Assembly: GCA_964195835.1 (NCBI GenBank)
Contig: CAXMTB010000006.1
Location: 1-44,549 of the forward strand
Length of the DNA stretch: 44,549 nucleotides
Source: an uncultured Nitrospinaceae bacterium
GTDB lineage: Bacteria > Desulfobacterota > Desulfobacteria > Desulfobacterales > UBA11574
Direction of reading: 5' to 3'
The translations under genes were made by a program, and so were the position numbers. The notes below the pieces were generated by a model that was not told where the DNA came from, did no database searches, and worked only from the letters and a program-made list of their open reading frames with translations. Positions 29,825-44,522 of the stretch are shown piece after piece (positions within the stretch are counted from its first letter, which is position 1; each line of letters opens with the position of its first letter).

Positions 29825-31018
29825 TTATTCGATAATCTCACTGACCACACCGGCACCAACCGTCCGACCGCCTTCCCTGATGGCAAACCTTAACTCTTTT
29901 TCCATCGCTATGGGCGTTATCAACTCCGCTGTGATCGTCACATTGTCTCCGGGCATCACCATCTCTACACCTTCCGGTAATGCCAAATTCCCCGTAACAT
30001 CCGTCGTACGAAAATAAAACTGAGGCCGATATCCACTGAAAAACGGCGTGTGACGGCCGCCCTCCTCCTTACTCAATATGTATACCTCCGCCTTGAACTT
30101 CGTGTGAGGCTCTATCGTACCGGGAATCGCTACCACCTGACCACGCTCAACCTCATCTCGCTTCGTCCCCCGAATCAATACACCAATGTTGTCGCCGGCT
30201 CGACCCTCATCCAAAAGCTTCCTGAACATCTCTACTCCCGTACACACCGTCTTCAACGTCGGACGAATCCCCACAATTTCAATATTATCTCCAACATGGA
30301 TAATGCCTCGATCAACACGACCCGTTACCACCGTCCCACGACCCGATATGCTGAAAACATCCTCTATCGGCATCAAAAACGGCTTGTCTATATCACGCAC
30401 GGGCTCAGGAATAAACGTGTCCACCGCATCCAGCAACTCAAAAATACACTTGGCTTCCTCACTGTCACTATCATCACTCTCAAGCGCCTTTAACGCACTG
30501 CCGCGAATGATCGGTGTGTCATCCCCCGGAAACTCATATTTGTCCAATAATTCCCGAAGCTCCAACTCAACAAGCTCGATCAGTTCTTCATCATCCACCA
30601 TGTCACACTTGTTTAAAAATACAACAATCTGCGGAACTCCCACCTGACGCGCCAACAATATGTGCTCACGCGTCTGGGGCATCGGACCATCGTCGGCGCC
30701 AACAACCAAAATGGCACCGTCCATCTGAGCCGCACCCGTTATCATGTTTTTGATGTAATCCGCATGACCCGGACAATCCACATGTGCATAATGACGATTC
30801 ACCGTCTCATACTCAACATGCGCCGTCGCTATGGTTATTCCTCGCTCCTTCTCCTCGGGGGCCTTGTCTATCTGATCAAAAGGAACAAAATCCGCCAGCC
30901 CCTTCATGGCCATATGCTTCGTTATCGCCGCGGTCAAAGTCGTCTTGCCGTGATCTATATGACCAATCGTACCGACATTTACATGTGGCTTGGTCCTCTC
31001 AAACTTTGCCTTACCCAT
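29825..31018 (-). CDS. tuf: Elongation factor Tu
   Basis: [36 protein letters not shown]. Confidence 0.99.
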
Positions 31019-31136
31019 CTTCGAAATCCTCCCTTTAAAGCGGGTTAGTGATGTACATCTTCATATTTCCAATAACGCCTTAGATGGTTTGATTTTCCGA
31101 AGTCTATTCACCGCCCAATGGACCCATCCTGACATT

Positions 31137-31607
31137 TTACCATTTGTAGTGCGCAAACGCCTTGTTCGCATCGGCCATCTTGTGGGTGTCTTCCTTCTTT
31201 TTAATTGAAGCGCCTCGTTTATTGGCGGCATCCAAAAGCTCTGCCGACAGCTTATTAACCATTCCTTTTTCAGATCTTTTACGAGCAAAGTCGATAATCC
31301 ACCTGATTCCGAGCGCCGTTCTCCGAGATGGCCGAATTTCTGTTGGAACCTGATAGGTTGATCCCCCAACGCGACGCGACTTGACCTCAATCATCGGTTT
31401 TGAATTTTCAAGCGCCTGTTCGAAAATTTTTATTGCAGGTTCACTGGTCTTTTTTTCGATGATATCCATAGCATTATAAAGAATTGACTCTGCGATACTC
31501 TTCTTTCCGTCCCTCATGATAGATTTTATGAATTTTGATACCAGCTTGCTGTTATACTTGGCATCCGGCACAATAACCCGTTCTGGGACTTCTCGTCTTC
31601 TAGGCAT
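31137..31607 (-). CDS. rpsG: 30S ribosomal protein S7
   Basis: [30 protein letters not shown]. Confidence 0.98.
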
Positions 31608-31699
31608 ATATCACACCACTTTTTTTTATTTTTCATTCATTTTCATGCAACGAAGCCCAGCCACATTGTATCGAGAACCTCGCGACATGTAACATGTTT

Positions 31700-32071
31700 C
31701 TACTTTGGCTTCTTGGACCCGTATTTTGATCGACCCTGTCTTCGATCCTCGACACCAAGGGTATCCAGGGTGCCTCTAACAATATGATACCTTACACCCG
31801 GAAGGTCTTTAACGCGCCCACCACGGACAAGAACAACCGAATGTTCTTGAAGATTATGTCCTATCCCCGGGATATAAGCGGTAACCTCTATGCCGGTTGT
31901 CAGTCGGACTCTGGCAACCTTCCGTAAGGCAGAATTGGGCTTCTTGGGTGTCGACGTATATACGCGGGTACAAACGCCTCTTTTCTGGGGACTCCCTTTA
32001 AGTGCCGGGGTATTGGTTTTCTTCTTAATTCGCTTTCTTCCTTTTCTTACCAGCTGATTAATCGTCGGCAT
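31700..32071 (-). CDS. rpsL: 30S ribosomal protein S12
   Basis: [30 protein letters not shown]. Confidence 0.99.
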
Positions 32072-32298: not shown

Positions 32299-35200
32299 CT
32301 AATTCGATATGATATCCACTTCTTTATATTTAGAAAGACCGGTGCCGGCAGGCATGATCCTTCCCATAATAACATTTTCCTTAAGCCCGCTCAGGCAATC
32401 TACTTTTCCGGCAATGCTTGCATCGGTAAGCACTTTGGTAGTTTCCTGAAATGAAGCGGCCGAGATAAAACTTTCGGTGGAAAGTGACGCCTTGGTGATC
32501 CCCAAGATAAGAGGTCCTGCCACAGCAGGTTTCTTTCCTTTTTCGATCACATCCTGGTTAGCTTCTTCAAACTTGACCCGATCCACCTGATCTTCAAGAA
32601 TAAAGTCTGTATCTCCGGCATCAAGGACCTTAACACGCCGCATCTGCTGCCGTACGATGACTTCGATGTGTTTATCGTTTATCCTTACACCTTGTAAACG
32701 GTAAACTTCTTGGACTTCATCAACGAGATATCGTGCCAGTGCAATTTCACCTTTAATATTCAATATATCTTGGGGGATAGCTGAACCGCTGATCAGCGCC
32801 TCACCCGCCCTGATGTAATCACCCTCGTAAACATTAACATGCTTGCCCCGTGTGATCAAATATTCTTTCTTTTCACCTACATCCACCGGTATGACGGTAA
32901 TCCTCTGTTTTCCTTTTTTGGTTGCCTTCGCTATTGAAACATACCCATCGATTTCGCTCAACACAGCGGTTTCTTTTGGTTTTCGCACTTCAAAAAGTTC
33001 AGCCACCCTTGGCAAACCGCCGGTAATATCTTTTGTCTTGGTCGTGGCACGGGGCAGCTTTGCGATAACATCGCCAGCCATAACATCATCCCCCTCTTCA
33101 ACCAGTAAAATTGCATTTATCGGCAGTAGATATCTGGCCACGCCCGATGATGATGGCAGGCTGGCTGTTTTTCCATCTTTGTCCTTAACCGAAATTCTTG
33201 GGCGTTCCTCAGCGCTTTTAGATTCAATGATCGTTCGACTCGATTTTCCGGTAACAGGATCAACTTTCTCCTGCATGGTTTTACCTGCCGTGATATCACC
33301 GAATTTAACGGTACCGTCAACTTCTGTAATAATTGGTGTTGTAAATGGATCCCATGTAACCAGAAGGTCTCCGACCTGGGCTTGGTCACCGTCTTTTACC
33401 TCGATGTGAGCGCCGTAAATGACCGGAAAGCGTTCTCTTTCGCGACCGCTGTCGCCAATGATGGCAATTTCGCCACCCCTTCTGTTCATCACAACAAATC
33501 TACTCTCGTCTTTTTTGACCACATTGACATTGAGAAATTTAACCAACCCCTCTGTCCTGGCTCTAATATCAGCCTGTTCAACCCTTCGGCTGGCTGTTCC
33601 GCCAATGTGAAACGTCCGCATGGTCAACTGGGTTCCGGGCTCGCCGATGGACTGTGCTGCAAGGATTCCCACTGCCTGACCAATTTCGACCTTTGCGCCA
33701 TGAGAAAGGTCCCGGCCATAGCACTTGACACACACGCCCGTTTTGGTCCTACAAGTTAATACAGATCTTATTTTCACTTTGGTAAGTCCGGCATGTTCAA
33801 TGGCCTTTACGGCATCTTCGTCCAGATCTTCACCGGCTTTGACAATCACCTCATCAGTAAACGGATCATGAATGTCTTCTATGGCAACACGCCCCAAGAT
33901 TCGTTCTTCAAGACGCTGTATTACTTCGCCGCCTTCCAACAGAGATTCAACCTCAACACCTATCATCGTTCCGCAGTCATCTTGAAGAACAATACAGTCT
34001 TGGGCAACATCGGCAAGCCTTCGGGTAAGATAACCTGAATTGGCTGTTTTAAGTGCTGTATCTGCCAGACCCTTTCTTGCGCCGTGAGTTGATATGAAAT
34101 ACTGAAGCACGGAAAGGCCCTCTCTAAAATTGGCGCTAATGGGTGTTTCTATGATTTCACCGGATGGTTTTGCCATCAGACCTCTCATGCCGGCAAGCTG
34201 ACGCATTTGGTCTTTACTGCCCCTGGCGCCGGAATCGGCCATCATATAGATCGGGTTAAAACTTTCTTCAACAACGGGGTTTCCCTTTTCATCCAAGACC
34301 GGGTTACCCTCACTGTCGGTCACAGGTGCTGTACGCATGGACTTCATCATCTCATCAGCAACATCGTCGGTTGCCTTGGCCCATATATCGACAACCTTAT
34401 TATATTTTTCACCTTGAGTGATAAGGCCCTCGGTATATTGTCGACCAATTTTTTCAGCTCGCTTTTCAGCACTTTTCAAAATATCCCATTTGGCTGCAGG
34501 TATGATCATAGCGTCAATAGAAATTGAGAGCCCGCCTTCGGTTGAGTATTGATAGCCGATGTTTTTTAAGCGGTCTGAAAGGATGACCGTAGCTTTGGGT
34601 CCCAAGTTTCTGTATGCATAATCCACAAGTTCACTCAAGGTCCTTTTATCCTTGACATTATTGATCATAGCAAACGGTATATCGGGTCGTTTGTTAACCA
34701 TTTTAAAAATATGGTAGGCTTCATCCGCAAAAATAACACCACTTGTTTCACCTTCTTCAAGGGCAAAGACGTTGTCTGTGTTCTCATCCGAAACACTGAA
34801 AATCCGTTTGAATTCGTCCTTTCTAAACAGACCGATAAGACCTTCATTTTCTCGATCAAGTCCCTTGGAATATTGGGCCACCATTTCGACAAAATTCGCA
34901 CCGGACTTTATATTTTCAAGAACAGCCGTGGCCTCTTTTTCCTCAAAAATCTTGATATGGCGCACCATCACAATGTTGTCCTTGGGTATGATTTCCCACA
35001 AAAGGATGCGCCCAACGGTCGTATCATACCTTTCCCCGTCGATTCGAACCGTAATTTTAGCATGAAGATCTATCGCCTTGGCATCGTAAGCACATCGAAC
35101 TTCTTCAGGATTAGCAAATATTTTGCCTTCGCCTTTTGATCCGGTCACTCCCCTGGTCATATAATAGATTCCAAGAACAATATCCTGACTCGGCACAATA

Positions 35201-36696
35201 ATGGGATGGCCATTTGCCGGAGAAAGAATATTGTTGCTGGACAGCATCAATACTCTTGCTTCTATCTGAGCTTCTACGGAAAGCGGTATATGAACAGCCA
35301 TCTGATCACCATCGAAGTCCGCATTAAATGCCGTGCAAACCAATGGATGAAGTTGGATGGCCTTTCCTTCAATAAGAATCGGCTCAAAAGCTTGAATACC
35401 CAATCTGTGTAAGGTAGGTGCCCGGTTTAAAAGGACCGGATACTCTTTAACCACCTCATCCAGTGTATCCCAAACTTCCGGGGTTTCACGTTCAACCATC
35501 TTTTTAGCGCTTTTTACCGTAGAAACAAGCCCTTTCTGCTCTAAACGATAATAAACAAATGGCTTGAACATCTCCAGCGCCATCTGCTTTGGGAGGCCGC
35601 ACTGATGCAATCGGAGATTGGGTCCAATGGTAATAACGGTACGTCCGGAATAATCGACCCTTTTACCCAGCAGGTTCTGCCTGAAACGTCCCTGCTTTCC
35701 TTTTAATGTGTCACTTAGAGATTTTAACGGACGCTTATTCGTCCCCATAATCGCTCTTCCGTGCCGACCGTTGTCAAAGAGAACATCCATCGACTCTTGA
35801 AGCATCCTCTTTTCGTTTCGAACAATAATGTCAGGGGCTTTCAATTCGATAAGGCGCTTTAACCGATTGTTTCTATTAATCACCCTGCGATAAAGGTCAT
35901 TGAGATCAGATGTTGCAAATCTCCCTCCCTCAAGGGGTACAAGGGGCCGCAAATCCGGCGGAAGAACGGGAATAACGTCCATGATCATCCAGGTCGGGTC
36001 AACTCCTGAACGTCTGAACGAATCAACAATCCTGAGTCGTTTGGAAAGTTTCTGCCGTTTTGCCACAGAACCGGTAGCGGTAATATCAACTCTTAATTCC
36101 TTATATAACGATTCTAGATCTATCTTCTCCAGCAGCTTTTTAACAGCTTCCGCACCGATACCAGCTTCGAATTTTGTCCCGTAAATCTCGCGTGCTTCTC
36201 TATATTTTTCTTCAGATAAAAGTTGACAGGGACTAAGGTCTGTGTCCATTGGGTCAATGACGATGTAGCTGTCAAAATAAATTACCTTTTCAAGATTTTT
36301 CAGCGTCATATCCATCAAGTTGCCGATCTTGCTCGGAAGGCTTCTTAAAAACCAAATATGAGAACAAGACGCGGCCAGTTCAATGTGTGCCATCCGTTCC
36401 CTCCGAACCTTGGACTGGATAACCTCCACACCGCATTTCTCACATATGACGCCCCTGTGCTTCATTCGTTTATATTTTCCGCAGTTGCACTCATAATCCT
36501 TTGTGGGACCAAAAATTTTGGCACAAAAAAGGCCGTCTCGTTCAGGTTTAAAGGTTCGATAGTTGATGGTCTCTGGTTTCTTAATCTCTCCATGGGACCA
36601 TTTTAAAATCTGCTCCGGAGATGCCAGTGCAATCTTAATTCCAGAATAAAGCTTCGGATCGGTGGGTTTGGCAAAAAAATCGTATAACGTTTCCAT
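32299..36696 (-). CDS. rpoC: RNA polymerase beta-prime subunit with parvulin-like insertion
   Basis: [39 protein letters not shown]; extra ~99-aa segment at about residues 573-671. Confidence 0.99.
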
Positions 36697-36711: not shown

Positions 36712-39700
36712 TTATAGTTTTCCTTCTAAAAGGGCTATATCCAAACCCAGACTCATTAATTCCTTTGTCAGTACTTTAAATGACTCGGGTAAGCCCGGAT
36801 CCAGCGTATTTTGCCCTTTTACGATTTTTTCGTACATGCGAGTCCTGCCAGCCATATCATCTGATTTCACTGTCAAAAATTCTTGCAGAGCATGTGCGGC
36901 ACCATAAGCTTCCATGGCCCATACTTCCATCTCGCCAAGCCGCTGACCGCCAAACTGTGCCTTTCCACCCAGCGGCTGCTGCGTTACCAGGGAATAAGGA
37001 CCTATGGACCTGGCATGGATCTTGTCATCCACAAGATGGTGTAGCTTCAACACATACATTGTCCCAACAGTAATCTTTTCCTTAAAGGGCTCGCCGGTAC
37101 GGCCGTCATATAGTGTTGTCTGACCGGTTGAGCTGAGCCCTGCTTCGGTTAAAAGAGATTTTATTTCCGCCTCTTTGGCGCCGTCAAAAACCGGTGTGGC
37201 CATATGGACACCATCTTTATAACCTTCCACAAATTCGCACATCTCTTTATCGTCAAAGCCGTCGATCATCTCCTGTAAAGACGGCTCTTCGAATATTTTC
37301 TTAATTTTATCGCGCAGGGCTACAATTTTTTGTTCTTCAAGCAACCTGTTGAGTTGATCGCCTAAACCTTTGGCAGCCCAACCTAAATGTATTTCCAAAA
37401 CCTGGCCAACATTCATTCGGGAAGGCACTCCCAGCGGGTTCAATATCATATCAACCGGTGTGCCGTCTTCAAAATAGGGCAGGTCTTCCTGGGGAAGAAT
37501 TTTCGACACGACACCTTTATTGCCGTGACGACCGGCCATTTTATCTCCGACGGATAACTTACGCTTCATGGCAACATAGACTTTTACAAGTTTGATGACG
37601 CCTGGAGGAAGGTCATCACCTTTTTCAAATCGGCCCACTTTCCGCTCAAATGTGTCCCTGCAAATTTCACATTGATTCCGATATCGTTCAAGAATGTTAT
37701 GGACCTTTTCCGTGAGCTGCGGGTTCTTTAATACAATGCCTTCTATCTGAGCCACGGGTATCTCGGCCAGCATGTTGGAATCTATTTTATCATCTTTTTG
37801 AATCAGAACTTTTTTTCCCTTTTTGAGAGATGAAATACATTCCTGGCCCACTAGCAATTGTTCAAGTTGTGTACGAACCACATCCTGAATAACGTCAAGC
37901 TTATCATCTGTCTCTTTTTCAAGGGAAGCAATCTCGCTATCTTCGATCCACCGGGTACGATCATCTTTTCCAACACCACGTCTTGAAAAAACTTTGGCAT
38001 CAATGACAATCCCACGAACGCCGGGTGGCACCCGCAAAGACGTGTCCTTCACATCTCCGGCTTTTTCACCGAAAATCGCCCGTAAAAGTTTTTCTTCAGG
38101 TGAAAGCTGTGTTTCACCTTTGGGTGTAATCTTGCCGACCAGTATATCTCCCGGCACCACTTCAGCACCGAGCCTGATAATACCGCTTTCATCCAACTCC
38201 TTTAAGGCTTCCTCGCCTACGTTTGGTATGTCTCGCGTGATATCCTCTTTGCCCAGTTTGGTATCTCGGGCAACGACCTCAAACTCCTCAATATGAACAG
38301 AAGTATACACGCCTTCCCGGTGAAGTCTTTCACCCAGAAGAATCGAATCCTCAAAATTATAACCGCCCCACGGCATAAATGCCACAGTAATGTTTTTCCC
38401 GAGAGCAAGTTCGCCATGGTCCGTAGCCGGACCGTCTGCAATGATCTGCCCGGCTTCCACTTTTTGTCCTTTTCTGACAATAGGACGTTGATTAAAGCAA
38501 GTATTCTGATTGGAACGGATGAATTTTGAGAGGTTGTAAACCGTAACCGGTATTTCAGAGGCCTTGTCGTCATCCCTATCTTCATGTCTTATAACAATCC
38601 GGGAAGCATCCACATGCACCACAGTACCATCATGCTGTGTAACCACCGTAACACCTGAATCTTTAGCCACCACCCCTTCAATACCGGTGCCCACTAAAGG
38701 TGCCTTGTTAACAATCAGAGGAACTGCCTGACGTTGCATGTTCGACCCCATCAATGCCCTATTGGCGTCATCATTTTCAAGGAACGGAATAAGGGATGCA
38801 GAAACACTCACAAGCTGGTTAGGGGAAATATCCATCAGTTCGATATCCTCGGCCTTGACCATCATGAACTCTCCCATCACCCTTGACGTTACCAGCGGAT
38901 TGACATATTTCCTATCTTCGTCCAGCAGCGCGTTAGCCTGGGCAATAGGGTGTTCTTTTTCTTCAAAAGCGGTAAGAAACTTGACATCTTTCAGCACAGT
39001 GGCATCTTTAACAACACTGTAGGGTGTTTCGATAAAACCATATTCATTGACTCGAGCATAAGTGCTAAGTGACACAATAAGACCAATATTCGGTCCTTCC
39101 GGCGTTTCTATGGGGCAAATTCGTCCGTAATGAGACGGGTGGACATCCCTGACTTCAAAACCGGCCCTCTCACGCGTCAATCCGCCGGGTCCCAATGCAC
39201 TCAAACGCCTTTTATGGGTCGTTTCTGAAAGCGGATTTGTTTGATCCATGAATTGGCTGAGCTGGCTTGTTCCAAAAAACTCTTTAACAACAGCGGAAAC
39301 CGGTTTTGAATTGGCAAGATCGTGGGGCATCAGTGCATCGACCTCTTGCAAACTCATCCGTTCCTTAATGGCACGTTCCATTCTGACCAGTCCGATGCGA
39401 TACTGGTTTTCGAGAAGCTCTCCAACGGCACGAACCCTTCGATTTCCTAGATGATCGATATCATCAACCGCTCCCTGGGCATCCTTAAGTTCTAAAAGTG
39501 TTTTCGTCGTAAGAAAGATATCTTCCTTTCGAAGCGTCTTTAAATCAATGGATGAGTTGATGCCCAGACGAGTGTTAATCTTCATACGGCCCACACCGGA
39601 AAGATCGTAATAGGAAGATTTGAAAAACATGTGGTCAACAAAATCCTGAGCCACTTCGGATGTGGCAGGATTTCCGGGTCTGAGTCTCCGGTATATCTCA

Positions 39701-40815
39701 ATGAGCCCACCCTCTTTTGTTTCAACTTTGTCCAAGAGCAGCGTTTTGTGAATAGAGTCACTGGTGGTTACACCATCAATAAAAAGCAGTTCAAATTCAG
39801 TAATACCGGCATCACGTAAGGCTTGAAAATTTTCTTCATCAAGCACCTGGTTGCATTCTACGATGGGTTCTTTTTTGTCAGGATCAATAATTGTTTTGGA
39901 AAAAACTTTGTTGACGATATCTTCAACACTCAACGGTATCAAATTGACACCCGCTGATTTGAGACGTTTAACTGAAGCTTTAGTAAACACGCGTCCTTTA
40001 GTAACAATTGTATCGCCGGTTTCAGGATTTTTGACATCTTGACCGGCACGCTGTCCTTTCAGCAAATCTTCATTAAATTCCTTAAAAATTCGTTTACCGC
40101 GGATAACGATCCTTTCTGTTTTATAAAAATAAGCCAGAATGTCTTCAGAAGTATATCCAAAAGATTTAAAAAGAATGGTGATCGGCAGTTTGCGACGCCT
40201 GTCAATTCGAATATTAACGATATCTTTATGGTCGATCTCCATATCGATCCATGACCCGCGCACAGGGATAATTCTGGAAGTATATATTACCTTGCCGGAG
40301 GAATGTGACTTACCTTTGTCATGATCGAAAAACACTCCGGAAGATCTGTGAAGCTGGCTTACCACAACACGTTCAGTCCCATTAATGATAAACGTACCAT
40401 TATCGGTCATCAGAGGAATCGTTCCAAAATAAATTTCCTGCTCTTTGATATCGCGAATGTTTGTAATTCCCGTCTCTTTATCAAGATCATATACAACCAA
40501 CCTGACAGTGATACGGAGTGGAATCTCGTAGGTCATTCCTCTGTGCATGCATTCATGAACACTGTGTTTGATTTCGCCAAATCGATAAGATACAAATTCA
40601 AGAGAAGCAGTTCCGGTAAAATCCTTTATGGGAAACACAGACTTATATACTGCTTGCAAGCCGATGTCTCTTCTTTTTTCCGGAGGAACATCCTTTTGCA
40701 AAAACCGATTGAATGATTCTTGTTGCACCGCGATTAGATTAGGAATATCAACAATCTTTGGTATCTTCCCAAAGTTTTTTCTTACGCGCCTGTTTGCCAA
40801 AAGCCTTTCCGACAT
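36712..40815 (-). CDS. rpoB: RNA polymerase beta subunit
   Basis: [42 protein letters not shown]. Confidence 0.99.
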
Positions 40816-43575: not shown

Positions 43576-44106
43576 TCATAGCTTCGACACCTGCACAAAT
43601 TCCAGCTCCACAGGCGTTGAACGACCGAAAATACTAACAAGAACTCTTATTTTACCCTTGTCAGGATTAACTTCATCAACGAAGCCGTTAAAGTTTTTAA
43701 AAGGCCCGTCAATTACACGGATCTCGTCTCCGGTCTCGAAAAAATATTTTGGCTGTGGTTTTAGTTTTCCAGCCTCCATTTGATTCAATATTTTCTGGGC
43801 CTCATCATCTGATATGGGTGTCGGTTTCTCTCGACCACCAAGAAACCCGGTAACTTTGGCAGTATTTGTTACAAGATGCCATGTTTCATCATCAAGCGCC
43901 ATCCTGACCAATATGTACCCCGGATAAAATTTACGAGACGATGTTTTTCGTTTACCTTTAACAAGTTCAACGATTTCCTCGGTAGGAACAATCACCTCAC
44001 CGAATTTCTCGGGCTGAGGAGAAGACGATATTCGCTCTTCCAGGGCAACTTTGACCTTGCTTTCAAACCCCGAATAAACATGGACTACATACCATTTAAG
44101 CGCCAC
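43576..44106 (-). CDS. nusG: Transcription termination/antitermination factor NusG
   Basis: GTG start 44106 (MALKWYVVHVYSGFE); FYPGYILV; KOW GPFKNFNG; IFGRSTPVEL. Confidence 0.97.
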   Translation of the reverse strand: MALKWYVVHVYSGFESKVKVALEERISSSPQPEKFGEVIVPTEEIVELVKGKRKTSSRKFYPGYILVRMALDDETWHLVTNTAKVTGFLGGREKPTPISDDEAQKILNQMEAGKLKPQPKYFFETGDEIRVIDGPFKNFNGFVDEVNPDKGKIRVLVSIFGRSTPVELEFVQVSKL

Positions 44107-44123
44107 TTTATCCTCTCCCAATT

Positions 44124-44522
44124 TTATTTTAAAACCACACGGATCAGGCTTGACAAACCGATATCGACCATCCCGAGAAAAACAGATATTATCATTACCA
44201 GAATAAGCACAACCACCGTGGAGCCAATGGTCTGCTTGCGCGATGGCCATACGACTTTTTTTAGCTCCACCTTGACTTCTCTGAGAAACTGGAGCCCCTT
44301 ATCTATGTACCCTTTGAACTTCCCCGGCTCAGCTTTTGTTCTTGTTAGAGATTTTTGTCTGGATGAATAGGCTTTTGCTTTTATACTTTTAACAGGACCT
44401 GTTAATAATTCAGTCTTCTTCGCAACAGCATCATTACTTGACTCTTGCGATGCTATCCCTTCGGCACTCAGCTGGTTCTTTTTCTTTGCTCTTTGTTTTT
44501 TCTTTTTTTGTATACGTGCCAT
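44124..44522 (-). CDS. secE: Preprotein translocase SecE with long basic N-terminal extension
   Basis: FLREVKVELKKVVWPS followed by one TM helix; directly upstream of nusG. Confidence 0.93.
   Translation of the reverse strand: MARIQKKKKQRAKKKNQLSAEGIASQESSNDAVAKKTELLTGPVKSIKAKAYSSRQKSLTRTKAEPGKFKGYIDKGLQFLREVKVELKKVVWPSRKQTIGSTVVVLILVMIISVFLGMVDIGLSSLIRVVLK

Follow-up and report, generated by a model that had tools for sequence, protein, structure and literature searches.

A parvulin-fold domain inserted into the RNA polymerase β′ subunit of Desulfobacterales

The DNA analysed here, called the window throughout, is a stretch of 44,549 nucleotides (nt) of contig CAXMTB010000006.1 (assembly GCA_964195835.1), deposited for an uncultured Nitrospinaceae bacterium and placed by GTDB in the order Desulfobacterales. 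Its rpoC gene, which encodes the β′ subunit of RNA polymerase (window 32299-36696, minus strand; an open reading frame (ORF) of 1465 amino acids (aa)), contains about 99 residues beyond those of standard RpoC proteins. The locus raises the question of what this extra segment is, how it is distributed and inherited, and what it may do for the polymerase. The first-pass annotation, made from the sequence alone, had described it as a parvulin-type peptidyl-prolyl isomerase domain with possibly degenerate catalysis, acting as a polymerase-tethered foldase or peptide-binding module. The analysis presented below identifies a parvulin-family domain with decayed catalytic positions and a conserved putative binding pocket, found in most sampled Desulfobacterales.

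The host ORF is a bacterial RpoC. All five Rpb1 domains were found in order in the whole protein by the Pfam search (E 1e-77 to 3e-20), the NADFDGD active-site motif is present in the translation, the gene shares an operon with rpoB, and the best matches among solved chains, as found by phmmer, are β′ chains. Rpb1 domain 3 is split by the insert, and its Pfam match breaks at profile position 82/162, at residue 574. The insert occupies residues 573-671 (window 34684-34980, minus strand), exactly as annotated in the first pass; the protein motifs quoted there are present, and DIPFAMIN begins at residue 672. It is in frame, and the rpoC reading frame is uninterrupted. The N-terminal flank (residues 520-572; window 34981-35139, minus strand) comprises a β-hairpin and a helix of Rpb1 domain 3, with strands at model residues 28-33 and 36-41, ends in WEIIPK and aligns with E. 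coli β′ up to residue 585; the longer stretch of residues 480-572 aligns with E. coli β′ 480-585 in the phmmer comparison. In the C-terminal flank (residues 672-740; window 34477-34683, minus strand) Rpb1 domain 3 resumes at DIPF. This flank is the second HMMER stretch to the Xanthomonas and Francisella β′ subunits, the alignments of which resume at “IPF” directly after the insert. The two flanks are contiguous in the solved RpoC proteins, in agreement with the earlier annotation, and the alignments place the insertion site at E. coli β′ 585/586.

The state of the site in other bacteria of the phylum was seen with residues 520-740 as a probe against 41 genomes spread across the phylum. Thirty-eight genomes of other orders matched the probe by the flanks alone (query 1-54 and 152/153-221), 31 of them by both pieces and seven by one. 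A continuous match was found only in G000 and in one genome of the same order, and one of the 41 genomes gave no match to the probe. Where both flank pieces were listed, they abut, as in G311, G325, G329 and G302; the largest gap seen was 54 nt, in G301. Since the flanks abut in other orders, the empty site is the state outside Desulfobacterales, and this comparison delimits the insert as residues 574-671 (98 aa).

The insert was confirmed as a genuine parvulin/Rotamase-type domain by profile, by sequence match and by predicted fold. In the whole RpoC, the Rotamase profile PF00639 matched residues 586-666 with an E-value of 4e-8 (34.6 bits against a cut-off of 21.7), and in the excised stretch of 117 aa the match improved to 8.4e-10 (39.9 bits against the same cut-off), well beyond what chance would give. 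Rotamase_3 was above its cut-off in both the whole protein and the excised stretch, and Rotamase_2 passed in the excised stretch and was marginal in the whole protein (27.1 against 27); the Pfam matches of the excised insert belong to Rotamase families only. Among solved parvulins, phmmer found NmPin (1.2e-5), followed by PrsA, Par10 and Pin1. The AlphaFold2 (AF2) model of residues 520-740, built with a 30-genome alignment (A1), had a mean predicted local distance difference test score (pLDDT) of 79, with blocks of 80-96 within the insert. Its elements, given in model numbering as strands (E) and helices (H), are E56-64, H67-78, H83-90, H94-98, E101-106, H107-114 (with 118-125), E136-138 and E141-150, so that the prediction contains the four-stranded sheet and helices of the parvulin fold in the order β-α3-β-α-β2.

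The comparison of this model with solved structures pointed in the same direction. A Foldseek search of the PDB placed PrsA at the top (6vj4, E 4.8e-8), with a probability of 1.00 for PrsA and for isolated parvulin domains. For the latter, the TMt values lay between 0.68 and 0.83 (1zk6 0.83, 6xd8 0.81, Par14 0.77, NmPin 0.76, PpiD 0.73). When VIA-align was run on the Foldseek top 1000, the best alignments were to the PrsA proteins of B. cereus and B. subtilis (Z 15.5, root-mean-square deviation (rmsd) 1.6-2.1 Å, 94 residues), and the compact domain-level matches within the top 50 rows ranged from Z 15.5 to 12.5 (rmsd 1.6-2.2 Å, 88-100 residues). The Z-scores of other parvulins were 14.1 for the full-length SurA chain (1m5y), 13.6 for SurA P1 with bound peptide (2pv1), about 13 for Pin1 and 13.0 for Ess1. 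All VIA-align alignments span model residues ~53-153. The Rotamase profile search, a check proposed in the first-pass annotation, and the structure prediction both gave a parvulin.

The insert is widespread in the order and was found there at the same site of RpoC. A word-index search with residues 572-675 returned 110 clusters of RpoC length carrying the insert, most of them of 1465 aa, with sources in NCBI, JGI, ENA and Logan; where named, they are Desulfobacterales, Desulfobacteraceae or “Deltaproteobacteria” metagenome-assembled genomes (MAGs). In the order sample, 296 of 301 genomes matched the insert at E<=1e-3, a count that includes free parvulins, and the best 150 of these matches (E<=9.6e-20) are without exception in long frames, mostly of 1459-1535 aa. 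In the class sample, 162 of 201 genomes matched at E<=1e-8; none of the 150 listed matches has a frame shorter than 906 aa, and all listed genomes belong to the same order, including single-contig genomes (e.g., G049, G233, G604 and G610). Matches at this threshold were much rarer in the phylum sample (26/301 genomes). Eight of them lie in frames of 1460-1511 aa, all from Desulfobacterales, and the 18 outside the order lie in frames of 309-640 aa and are free-standing parvulins. A scan of public contigs with an 18-sequence insert alignment (A3) found 80 named contigs carrying the insert, including those of Candidatus Desulfatibia, Eth-SRB1/Eth-SRB2, Desulfococcaceae bacterium, Desulfatitalea and the Olavius Delta 3 symbiont. 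The phylogenetic distribution is therefore that of a feature carried by most sampled Desulfobacterales, with 38 genomes of other orders lacking it.

A search of 1.84 billion representatives with the insert profile found no full-length RpoC from another phylum among the 16 scanned of the 150 listed matches; this is uninformative on other phyla, because the cluster heads that stand for full-length RpoC proteins probably lack the insert. Among the top thirteen, the scanned single-stretch matches to RpoC number five, all fragments (P0115, P0119, P0121, P0122 and P0127). Two more scanned single-stretch matches contain Rotamase families only, and the other scanned matches are multi-parvulin SurA-like proteins. 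Six proteins of 430-1303 aa (P0116, P0118, P0120, P0149, P0157 and P0239) belong to the nearest relatives of the insert profile outside RpoC; each contains between three and six Rotamase domains in tandem, and in some of them a SurA-like domain stands at the N terminus. A word-index search with the diverged insert L038 (“longer” lengths) returned a single protein and no cultured-species names. The domain is already visible in public annotation as precomputed PF00639 matches on these RpoC proteins. One partial RpoC of 1154 aa from a Desulfobacterales MAG (P0036) bears the NCBI name “peptidylprolyl isomerase, partial”, which looks like a misannotation brought about by the insert.

Ten Desulfobacterales genomes with a weak or no insert match were examined singly. 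In two of them, G045 (L127/L129, frame of 1437 aa) and G070 (L134/L135, 1371 aa), rpoC has no parvulin, and ~28 and ~9 residues, respectively, stand at the site. These genomes represent two other families of the same order and can be regarded as natural “knock-outs”. Five genomes (G027, G058, G067, G113 and G012) keep an insert of about 100 aa with eroded motifs. In G001 (L128, G001:C12, locus ~1500-2170), the rpoC frame changes twice inside the insert, and all three frames are insert-like; the frame changes are most likely assembly indel errors and not a split gene. In the remaining two genomes, G002 and G253, no rpoC match was found.

The inheritance of the insert was addressed with a quick IQ-TREE phylogeny of 55 RpoC rows and ~1070 columns, from which the insert columns had been removed. 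The two insert-less rows nest among insert-bearing rows with values of only 89-91 in the Shimodaira-Hasegawa-like approximate likelihood ratio test (SH-aLRT). In the approximately unbiased (AU) test, run on 52 rows after omission of three long-branch outgroup rows (L148, L149 and L165), the monophyly of all insert-bearing rows was not rejected (p-AU 0.717). The data are compatible with a single origin of the insert, and the insert-less families of G045 and G070 may represent either secondary loss or basal absence. Among 91 unique rows, which give 4095 non-independent pairs, the p-distance of the insert rises with that of the flanks (Spearman 0.78), and by the same measure divergence is 2.1 times faster in the insert. 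The median ratio of nonsynonymous to synonymous substitution rates (dN/dS, Nei-Gojobori) is 0.174 for the insert and 0.092 for the flanks in 677 pairs that are 78-99.5% identical with finite dS. The insert is under purifying selection, about twice as relaxed as that of the flanks. It is a conserved lineage feature of most sampled Desulfobacterales and not a chimera.

What the domain does was approached through its active-site positions, counted in 92 unique insert sequences taken from the window and 114 further loci. The catalytic Cys/Asp position of active parvulins, two residues after the conserved (Y/H)S, is Gly612 here (window 34861-34863, minus strand) and aligns with the Asp of two solved PrsA proteins; in the HMMER alignment with NmPin, the catalytic Asp falls in an insertion. 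The first-pass annotation had noticed this Gly, and the substitution proved to be a property of the clade: the position holds Gly in 46 of the 92 inserts, Ser in 31, Ala in 11, Val in two, Thr in one, Asp in one and Cys in none. Both His of the dual-His motif, likewise noted earlier, are present here. The first is His580 (window 34957-34959, minus strand), a position with 76 His, 12 Gln and four Arg, and the second is His662 (window 34711-34713, minus strand), which is His in 88/92; one or both are gone in some diverged families. Five residues before His662 stands Ala657, at a position that is Ala in 60, Ser in 17 and Thr in two of the 92 inserts, with other residues in the rest, and Ser in all three aligned solved parvulins. 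This Ser/Thr position is presumably that of Pin1 T152, which belongs to the hydrogen-bond network. By these alignments, the insert is a member of the parvulin family that lacks both the catalytic Cys/Asp and the hydrogen-bonding Ser/Thr.

Other parts of the domain are more strongly conserved than the catalytic positions. The residues I621, F629 and F633, which align with Leu, Met and Phe of NmPin, form a putative proline pocket, and across the 92 inserts these positions are L/I/V in 88, F in 90 and F/Y in 91; we take them to be the counterparts of Pin1 L122/M130/F134. The most conserved stretch of the insert is the helix with the RKDEFKR motif (residues 622-633; window 34798-34833, minus strand; model residues 107-114), which would form the rim of the putative pocket. 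The highest counts were obtained for S610 and G622 (92 each), G619 (91), E628 and F629 (90 each), R631 (88), D627 (84) and R625 (82), with F633 being F in 78 and Y in 13. Free parvulins of the source genome and phylum are 27-35% identical to the insert, which has 6-7 extra residues after the RKDEFKR helix.

The position of the domain on the polymerase was estimated by residue numbering. From E. coli 585/586, the insertion site would correspond to B. subtilis β′ ~560-575, which falls inside the segment 492-655. According to Pei 2020 (PMC7749165), B. subtilis β′ 492-655 lines the cavity of the ε subunit. In the account of Newing 2020 (PMC7749167), Thermus βIn10/βIn12 and the extra domain of Rpo3/RPB3 occupy that area, and lineage-specific inserts and small subunits may serve similar functions. 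From the numbering, we infer that the insert sits on a β′ segment forming part of the secondary-channel wall. Like Firmicutes ε and Thermus βIn10/βIn12, it would then be a small module in the region of β′ 492-655, α and β, on the downstream secondary-channel side (PMC7749165, PMC7749167). The ε subunit differs in being a separate polypeptide with another fold, and the putative co-location of the insert with the ε cavity is derived from numbering.

The closest known relatives of the insert by fold and family are the parvulin domains of PrsA, SurA (P1 and P2) and PpiD (PF00639, PF13145 and PF13616). The parvulin domains of SurA P1 and PpiD are catalytically inactive, and, like them, the insert has no catalytic Cys/Asp. 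The parvulin domains of the chaperones PrsA, SurA and PpiD likewise interrupt a host domain. Those proteins are periplasmic or lipoprotein chaperones, whereas the host of the insert is the cytoplasmic catalytic subunit of RNA polymerase. The insert also differs in the 6-7 extra residues, which follow helix 4, and in the clade-specific RKDEFKR, which replaces the Gly-x-Met segment of ordinary parvulins. By analogy, the insert seems to resemble most the inactive parvulin domains of the chaperone type, SurA P1 and PpiD.

Parvulin-family proteins tied to the largest polymerase subunit are also found in eukaryotes, where Ess1/Pin1 act on RNA polymerase II at its C-terminal domain (CTD). The insert model aligns with Pin1 and Candida Ess1 at Z ~13 (rmsd 1.6 Å, 89 residues; VIA-align). 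Ess1/Pin1, which contain a WW domain and a basic loop that binds phosphate, work in trans on repeats of Ser-Pro. They are separate, active enzymes, whereas the insert is fused in cis and has no catalytic Cys, and bacterial β′ has no CTD repeats.

With the known β′ inserts (E. coli SI3/β′In6, Thermus β′In2, and the HABAS, BEAN and sLC classes) the parvulin insert shares an in-frame position in a surface loop, restriction to a lineage, independent folding and vertical inheritance. Its predicted fold is unlike that of the HABAS/SBHM, BEAN/BBM2 and sLC classes, as revealed by Pfam, Foldseek and VIA-align. The survey of Alvarez-Carreno et al. 2024 (PMC11515920, sections 2.4 and 2.6) describes only HABAS, BEAN and sLC classes, at seven sites, which are named by a domain scheme of its own and given there without residue numbers. 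The main text contains no mention of parvulin, PPIase (peptidyl-prolyl isomerase), rotamase, prolyl, isomerase or Desulfo, and one supplement contains no Desulfo, parvulin, Rotamase, PPIase, 3.10.50.40 or Thermodesulfobacteri; from the absence of the Desulfo terms in this text and supplement, the order was apparently outside the dataset of the survey. As far as these parts of the survey extend, the insert is a lineage-specific RNA polymerase insert of a fold class absent from it. The first-pass annotation referred to comparative surveys noting such inserts in some deltaproteobacteria. These were not found in a full-text literature search, which returned no paper describing a parvulin insert in RpoC and the coverage of which did not extend to the insert tables of Lane & Darst 2010.

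Several explanations of the insert have to be weighed against each other. The source genome is a MAG in 649 contigs with a completeness of 91% and a contamination of 2.4%, which speaks for an assembly chimera or annotation artefact; this reading has a negligible probability and was rejected, since the insert recurs at the same site in the 110 clusters, in most genomes of the class sample, single-contig genomes among them, and in the 80 named public contigs. The uninterrupted rpoC frame and the GC content of the insert, near that of the rest of rpoC (0.411 vs 0.457), also contradict it. An active polymerase-tethered prolyl isomerase, which would flip a proline of a transcription factor, of the polymerase or of a nascent protein between cis and trans, is improbable. 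The parvulin fold is intact in the predicted model, the proline-pocket residues are conserved, both His are kept here and in most inserts, and Ser or, once, Asp occupies the Cys/Asp position in a part of the clade; Pin1 retains a minor part of its activity when C113 is replaced by Ser. Against such an enzyme stand the Gly found at that position here and in 46 inserts, the lack of Cys in all of them, the prevalence of Ala five residues before the second His, the retention of the insert in lineages that have lost one or both His, and the location of the strongest constraint outside the catalytic positions. The decayed catalytic positions speak against isomerase chemistry as the function under selection. 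Of the two functions proposed in the first-pass annotation, the foldase is the less likely one, and binding is favoured.

A different possibility, doubtful but deserving consideration, is that the insert is a passive, ligand-free structural buttress that fills or braces the concave downstream face between α, β and β′. It would resemble in this the Firmicutes ε subunit, Thermus βIn10/βIn12 and the extra Rpo3/RPB3 domain, and its fold would provide bulk only. The insertion site within the β′ segment that lines the ε cavity (PMC7749165) and the presence of the Thermus inserts and the Rpo3/RPB3 domain, possibly with similar functions, in the same area (PMC7749167) agree with such a role, as do the persistence of a ~100-aa insert where the parvulin motifs are eroded, its ~2.1-fold faster evolution and its roughly doubled dN/dS. 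However, the charged residues R625, D627, E628 and R631, of the kind expected at a solvent-exposed surface, and the pocket aromatics are kept in 82-90 of the 92 inserts, beyond the needs of bulk; the orientation of the site towards the ε cavity is putative, and two families manage without the insert.

The explanation favoured here, to which about an even chance is assigned, is a non-catalytic or weakly catalytic tethered binding/docking module. A surface loop in Rpb1 domain 3 of RpoC would have received a complete parvulin-fold domain in a single event, at or near the base of Desulfobacterales, with vertical inheritance thereafter. The domain would have lost its catalytic Cys/Asp as well as the hydrogen-bonding Ser/Thr and retained the hydrophobic proline pocket and the charged RKDEFKR rim helix. 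Prolyl isomerase activity would be residual at most, and the domain may act in the manner of the inactive peptide-binding parvulin domains SurA P1 and PpiD, with part of a transcription factor or of the polymerase as a possible ligand. A fold that is intact, a pocket and rim that are conserved, catalytic positions that have decayed and a constraint that is clear though relaxed together favour a binding/docking module, and from them we infer the binding function.

Several points weigh against this explanation. Binding is deduced from residue conservation, and the position near the secondary channel from residue numbering and one published sentence. Both His are kept in most inserts (76/92 and 88/92) and Ser stands at the Cys/Asp position in 31/92, so residual catalysis in part of the clade is possible. 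In several free parvulins of the source genome and phylum the catalytic position is already Gly or Ser, and its “decay” may predate the insertion. In G027, G067, G113 and G012, an insert of about 100 aa is kept with a heavily eroded RKDEFKR helix and His. Together with the insert-less G045 and G070, these families indicate that a specific conserved ligand is not universal and that the insert is dispensable in some lineages. A binding/docking module could take the form of a built-in receptor on the secondary-channel face that captures a proline-containing segment of a regulator, for example a Gre/DksA-type factor, ω or σ, or of a nascent or neighbouring protein. This is proposed tentatively and is rather unlikely. 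Secondary-channel factors exist in the source genome, in which one GreA and four zinc-finger proteins of the DksA type score above the Pfam cut-off.

The surroundings of rpoC are largely conventional. The rpoB gene (window 36712-40815, minus strand; Pfam Rpb2 domains 1, 2, 3, 45, 6 and 7) lies directly upstream in the shared operon, and the gene order nusG-rplK-rplA-rplJ-rplL-rpoB-rpoC-rpsL-rpsG-tuf-rpsJ is that of the usual cluster. The tuf gene (397 aa) comes straight after rpsL and rpsG (window 29825-32071, minus strand); there is no space for fusA, encoding EF-G, between rpsG (ending at 31137) and tuf (starting at 31018), and this differs from the classical str operon. The longest ORF of nusG (window 43576-44250, minus strand) has 224 aa, with the NusG Pfam domain starting only at residue 52. 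The ORF was probably called too long by its first ~48 residues, the likely start being a GTG near VALKWYVV; for this reason the N-terminal extension of about 50 aa was dropped as a candidate ligand of the insert. Within Rpb1 domain 5, RpoC residues 1100-1301 (window ~32794-33399) gave weak sub-threshold matches to Biotin_lipoyl_2, Peptidase_M23, Apocytochrome f and RPOC_hybrid. Such matches would fit a barrel-sandwich insert resembling SI3 in the trigger-loop region, of the kind present in other Gram-negative lineages. On contig C21 of G000 (L166), greA (999-1466, 155 aa) is followed at once by rpoZ, encoding ω (1480-1728, 82 aa), and the ω of G000 has a Glu-rich, strongly acidic tail at its end.

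In bacterial RNA polymerase, lineage-specific inserts are known to modulate pausing, the stability of the open complex and the binding of factors. The insert classes named in the text of the 2024 survey are the β-rich HABAS, BEAN and sLC, and parvulin is a peptide-binding/isomerase fold with a well-understood ligand chemistry. The host order comprises environmentally important sulfate reducers and syntrophic partners of alkane oxidisers. The domain also causes errors in annotation, an RpoC fragment having been named after an isomerase, and it offers a testable handle in its pocket, its conserved RKDEFKR helix and the natural knock-outs in two families. If the domain were a receptor on the secondary-channel face, access of factors to the active site, or the coupling of transcription to other machinery, would depend on a prolyl peptide, and the insert would be a bacterial cis-fused counterpart of Ess1/Pin1 and polymerase II and a new class of regulatory insert. 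If factor recruitment or the sensing of a prolyl switch were true, this would be a new mode of regulation of bacterial transcription and an evolutionary parallel to the eukaryotic Pin1/Ess1 system. If the domain were only a brace, it would still follow that the inserts of RNA polymerase are not restricted to the few known fold classes.

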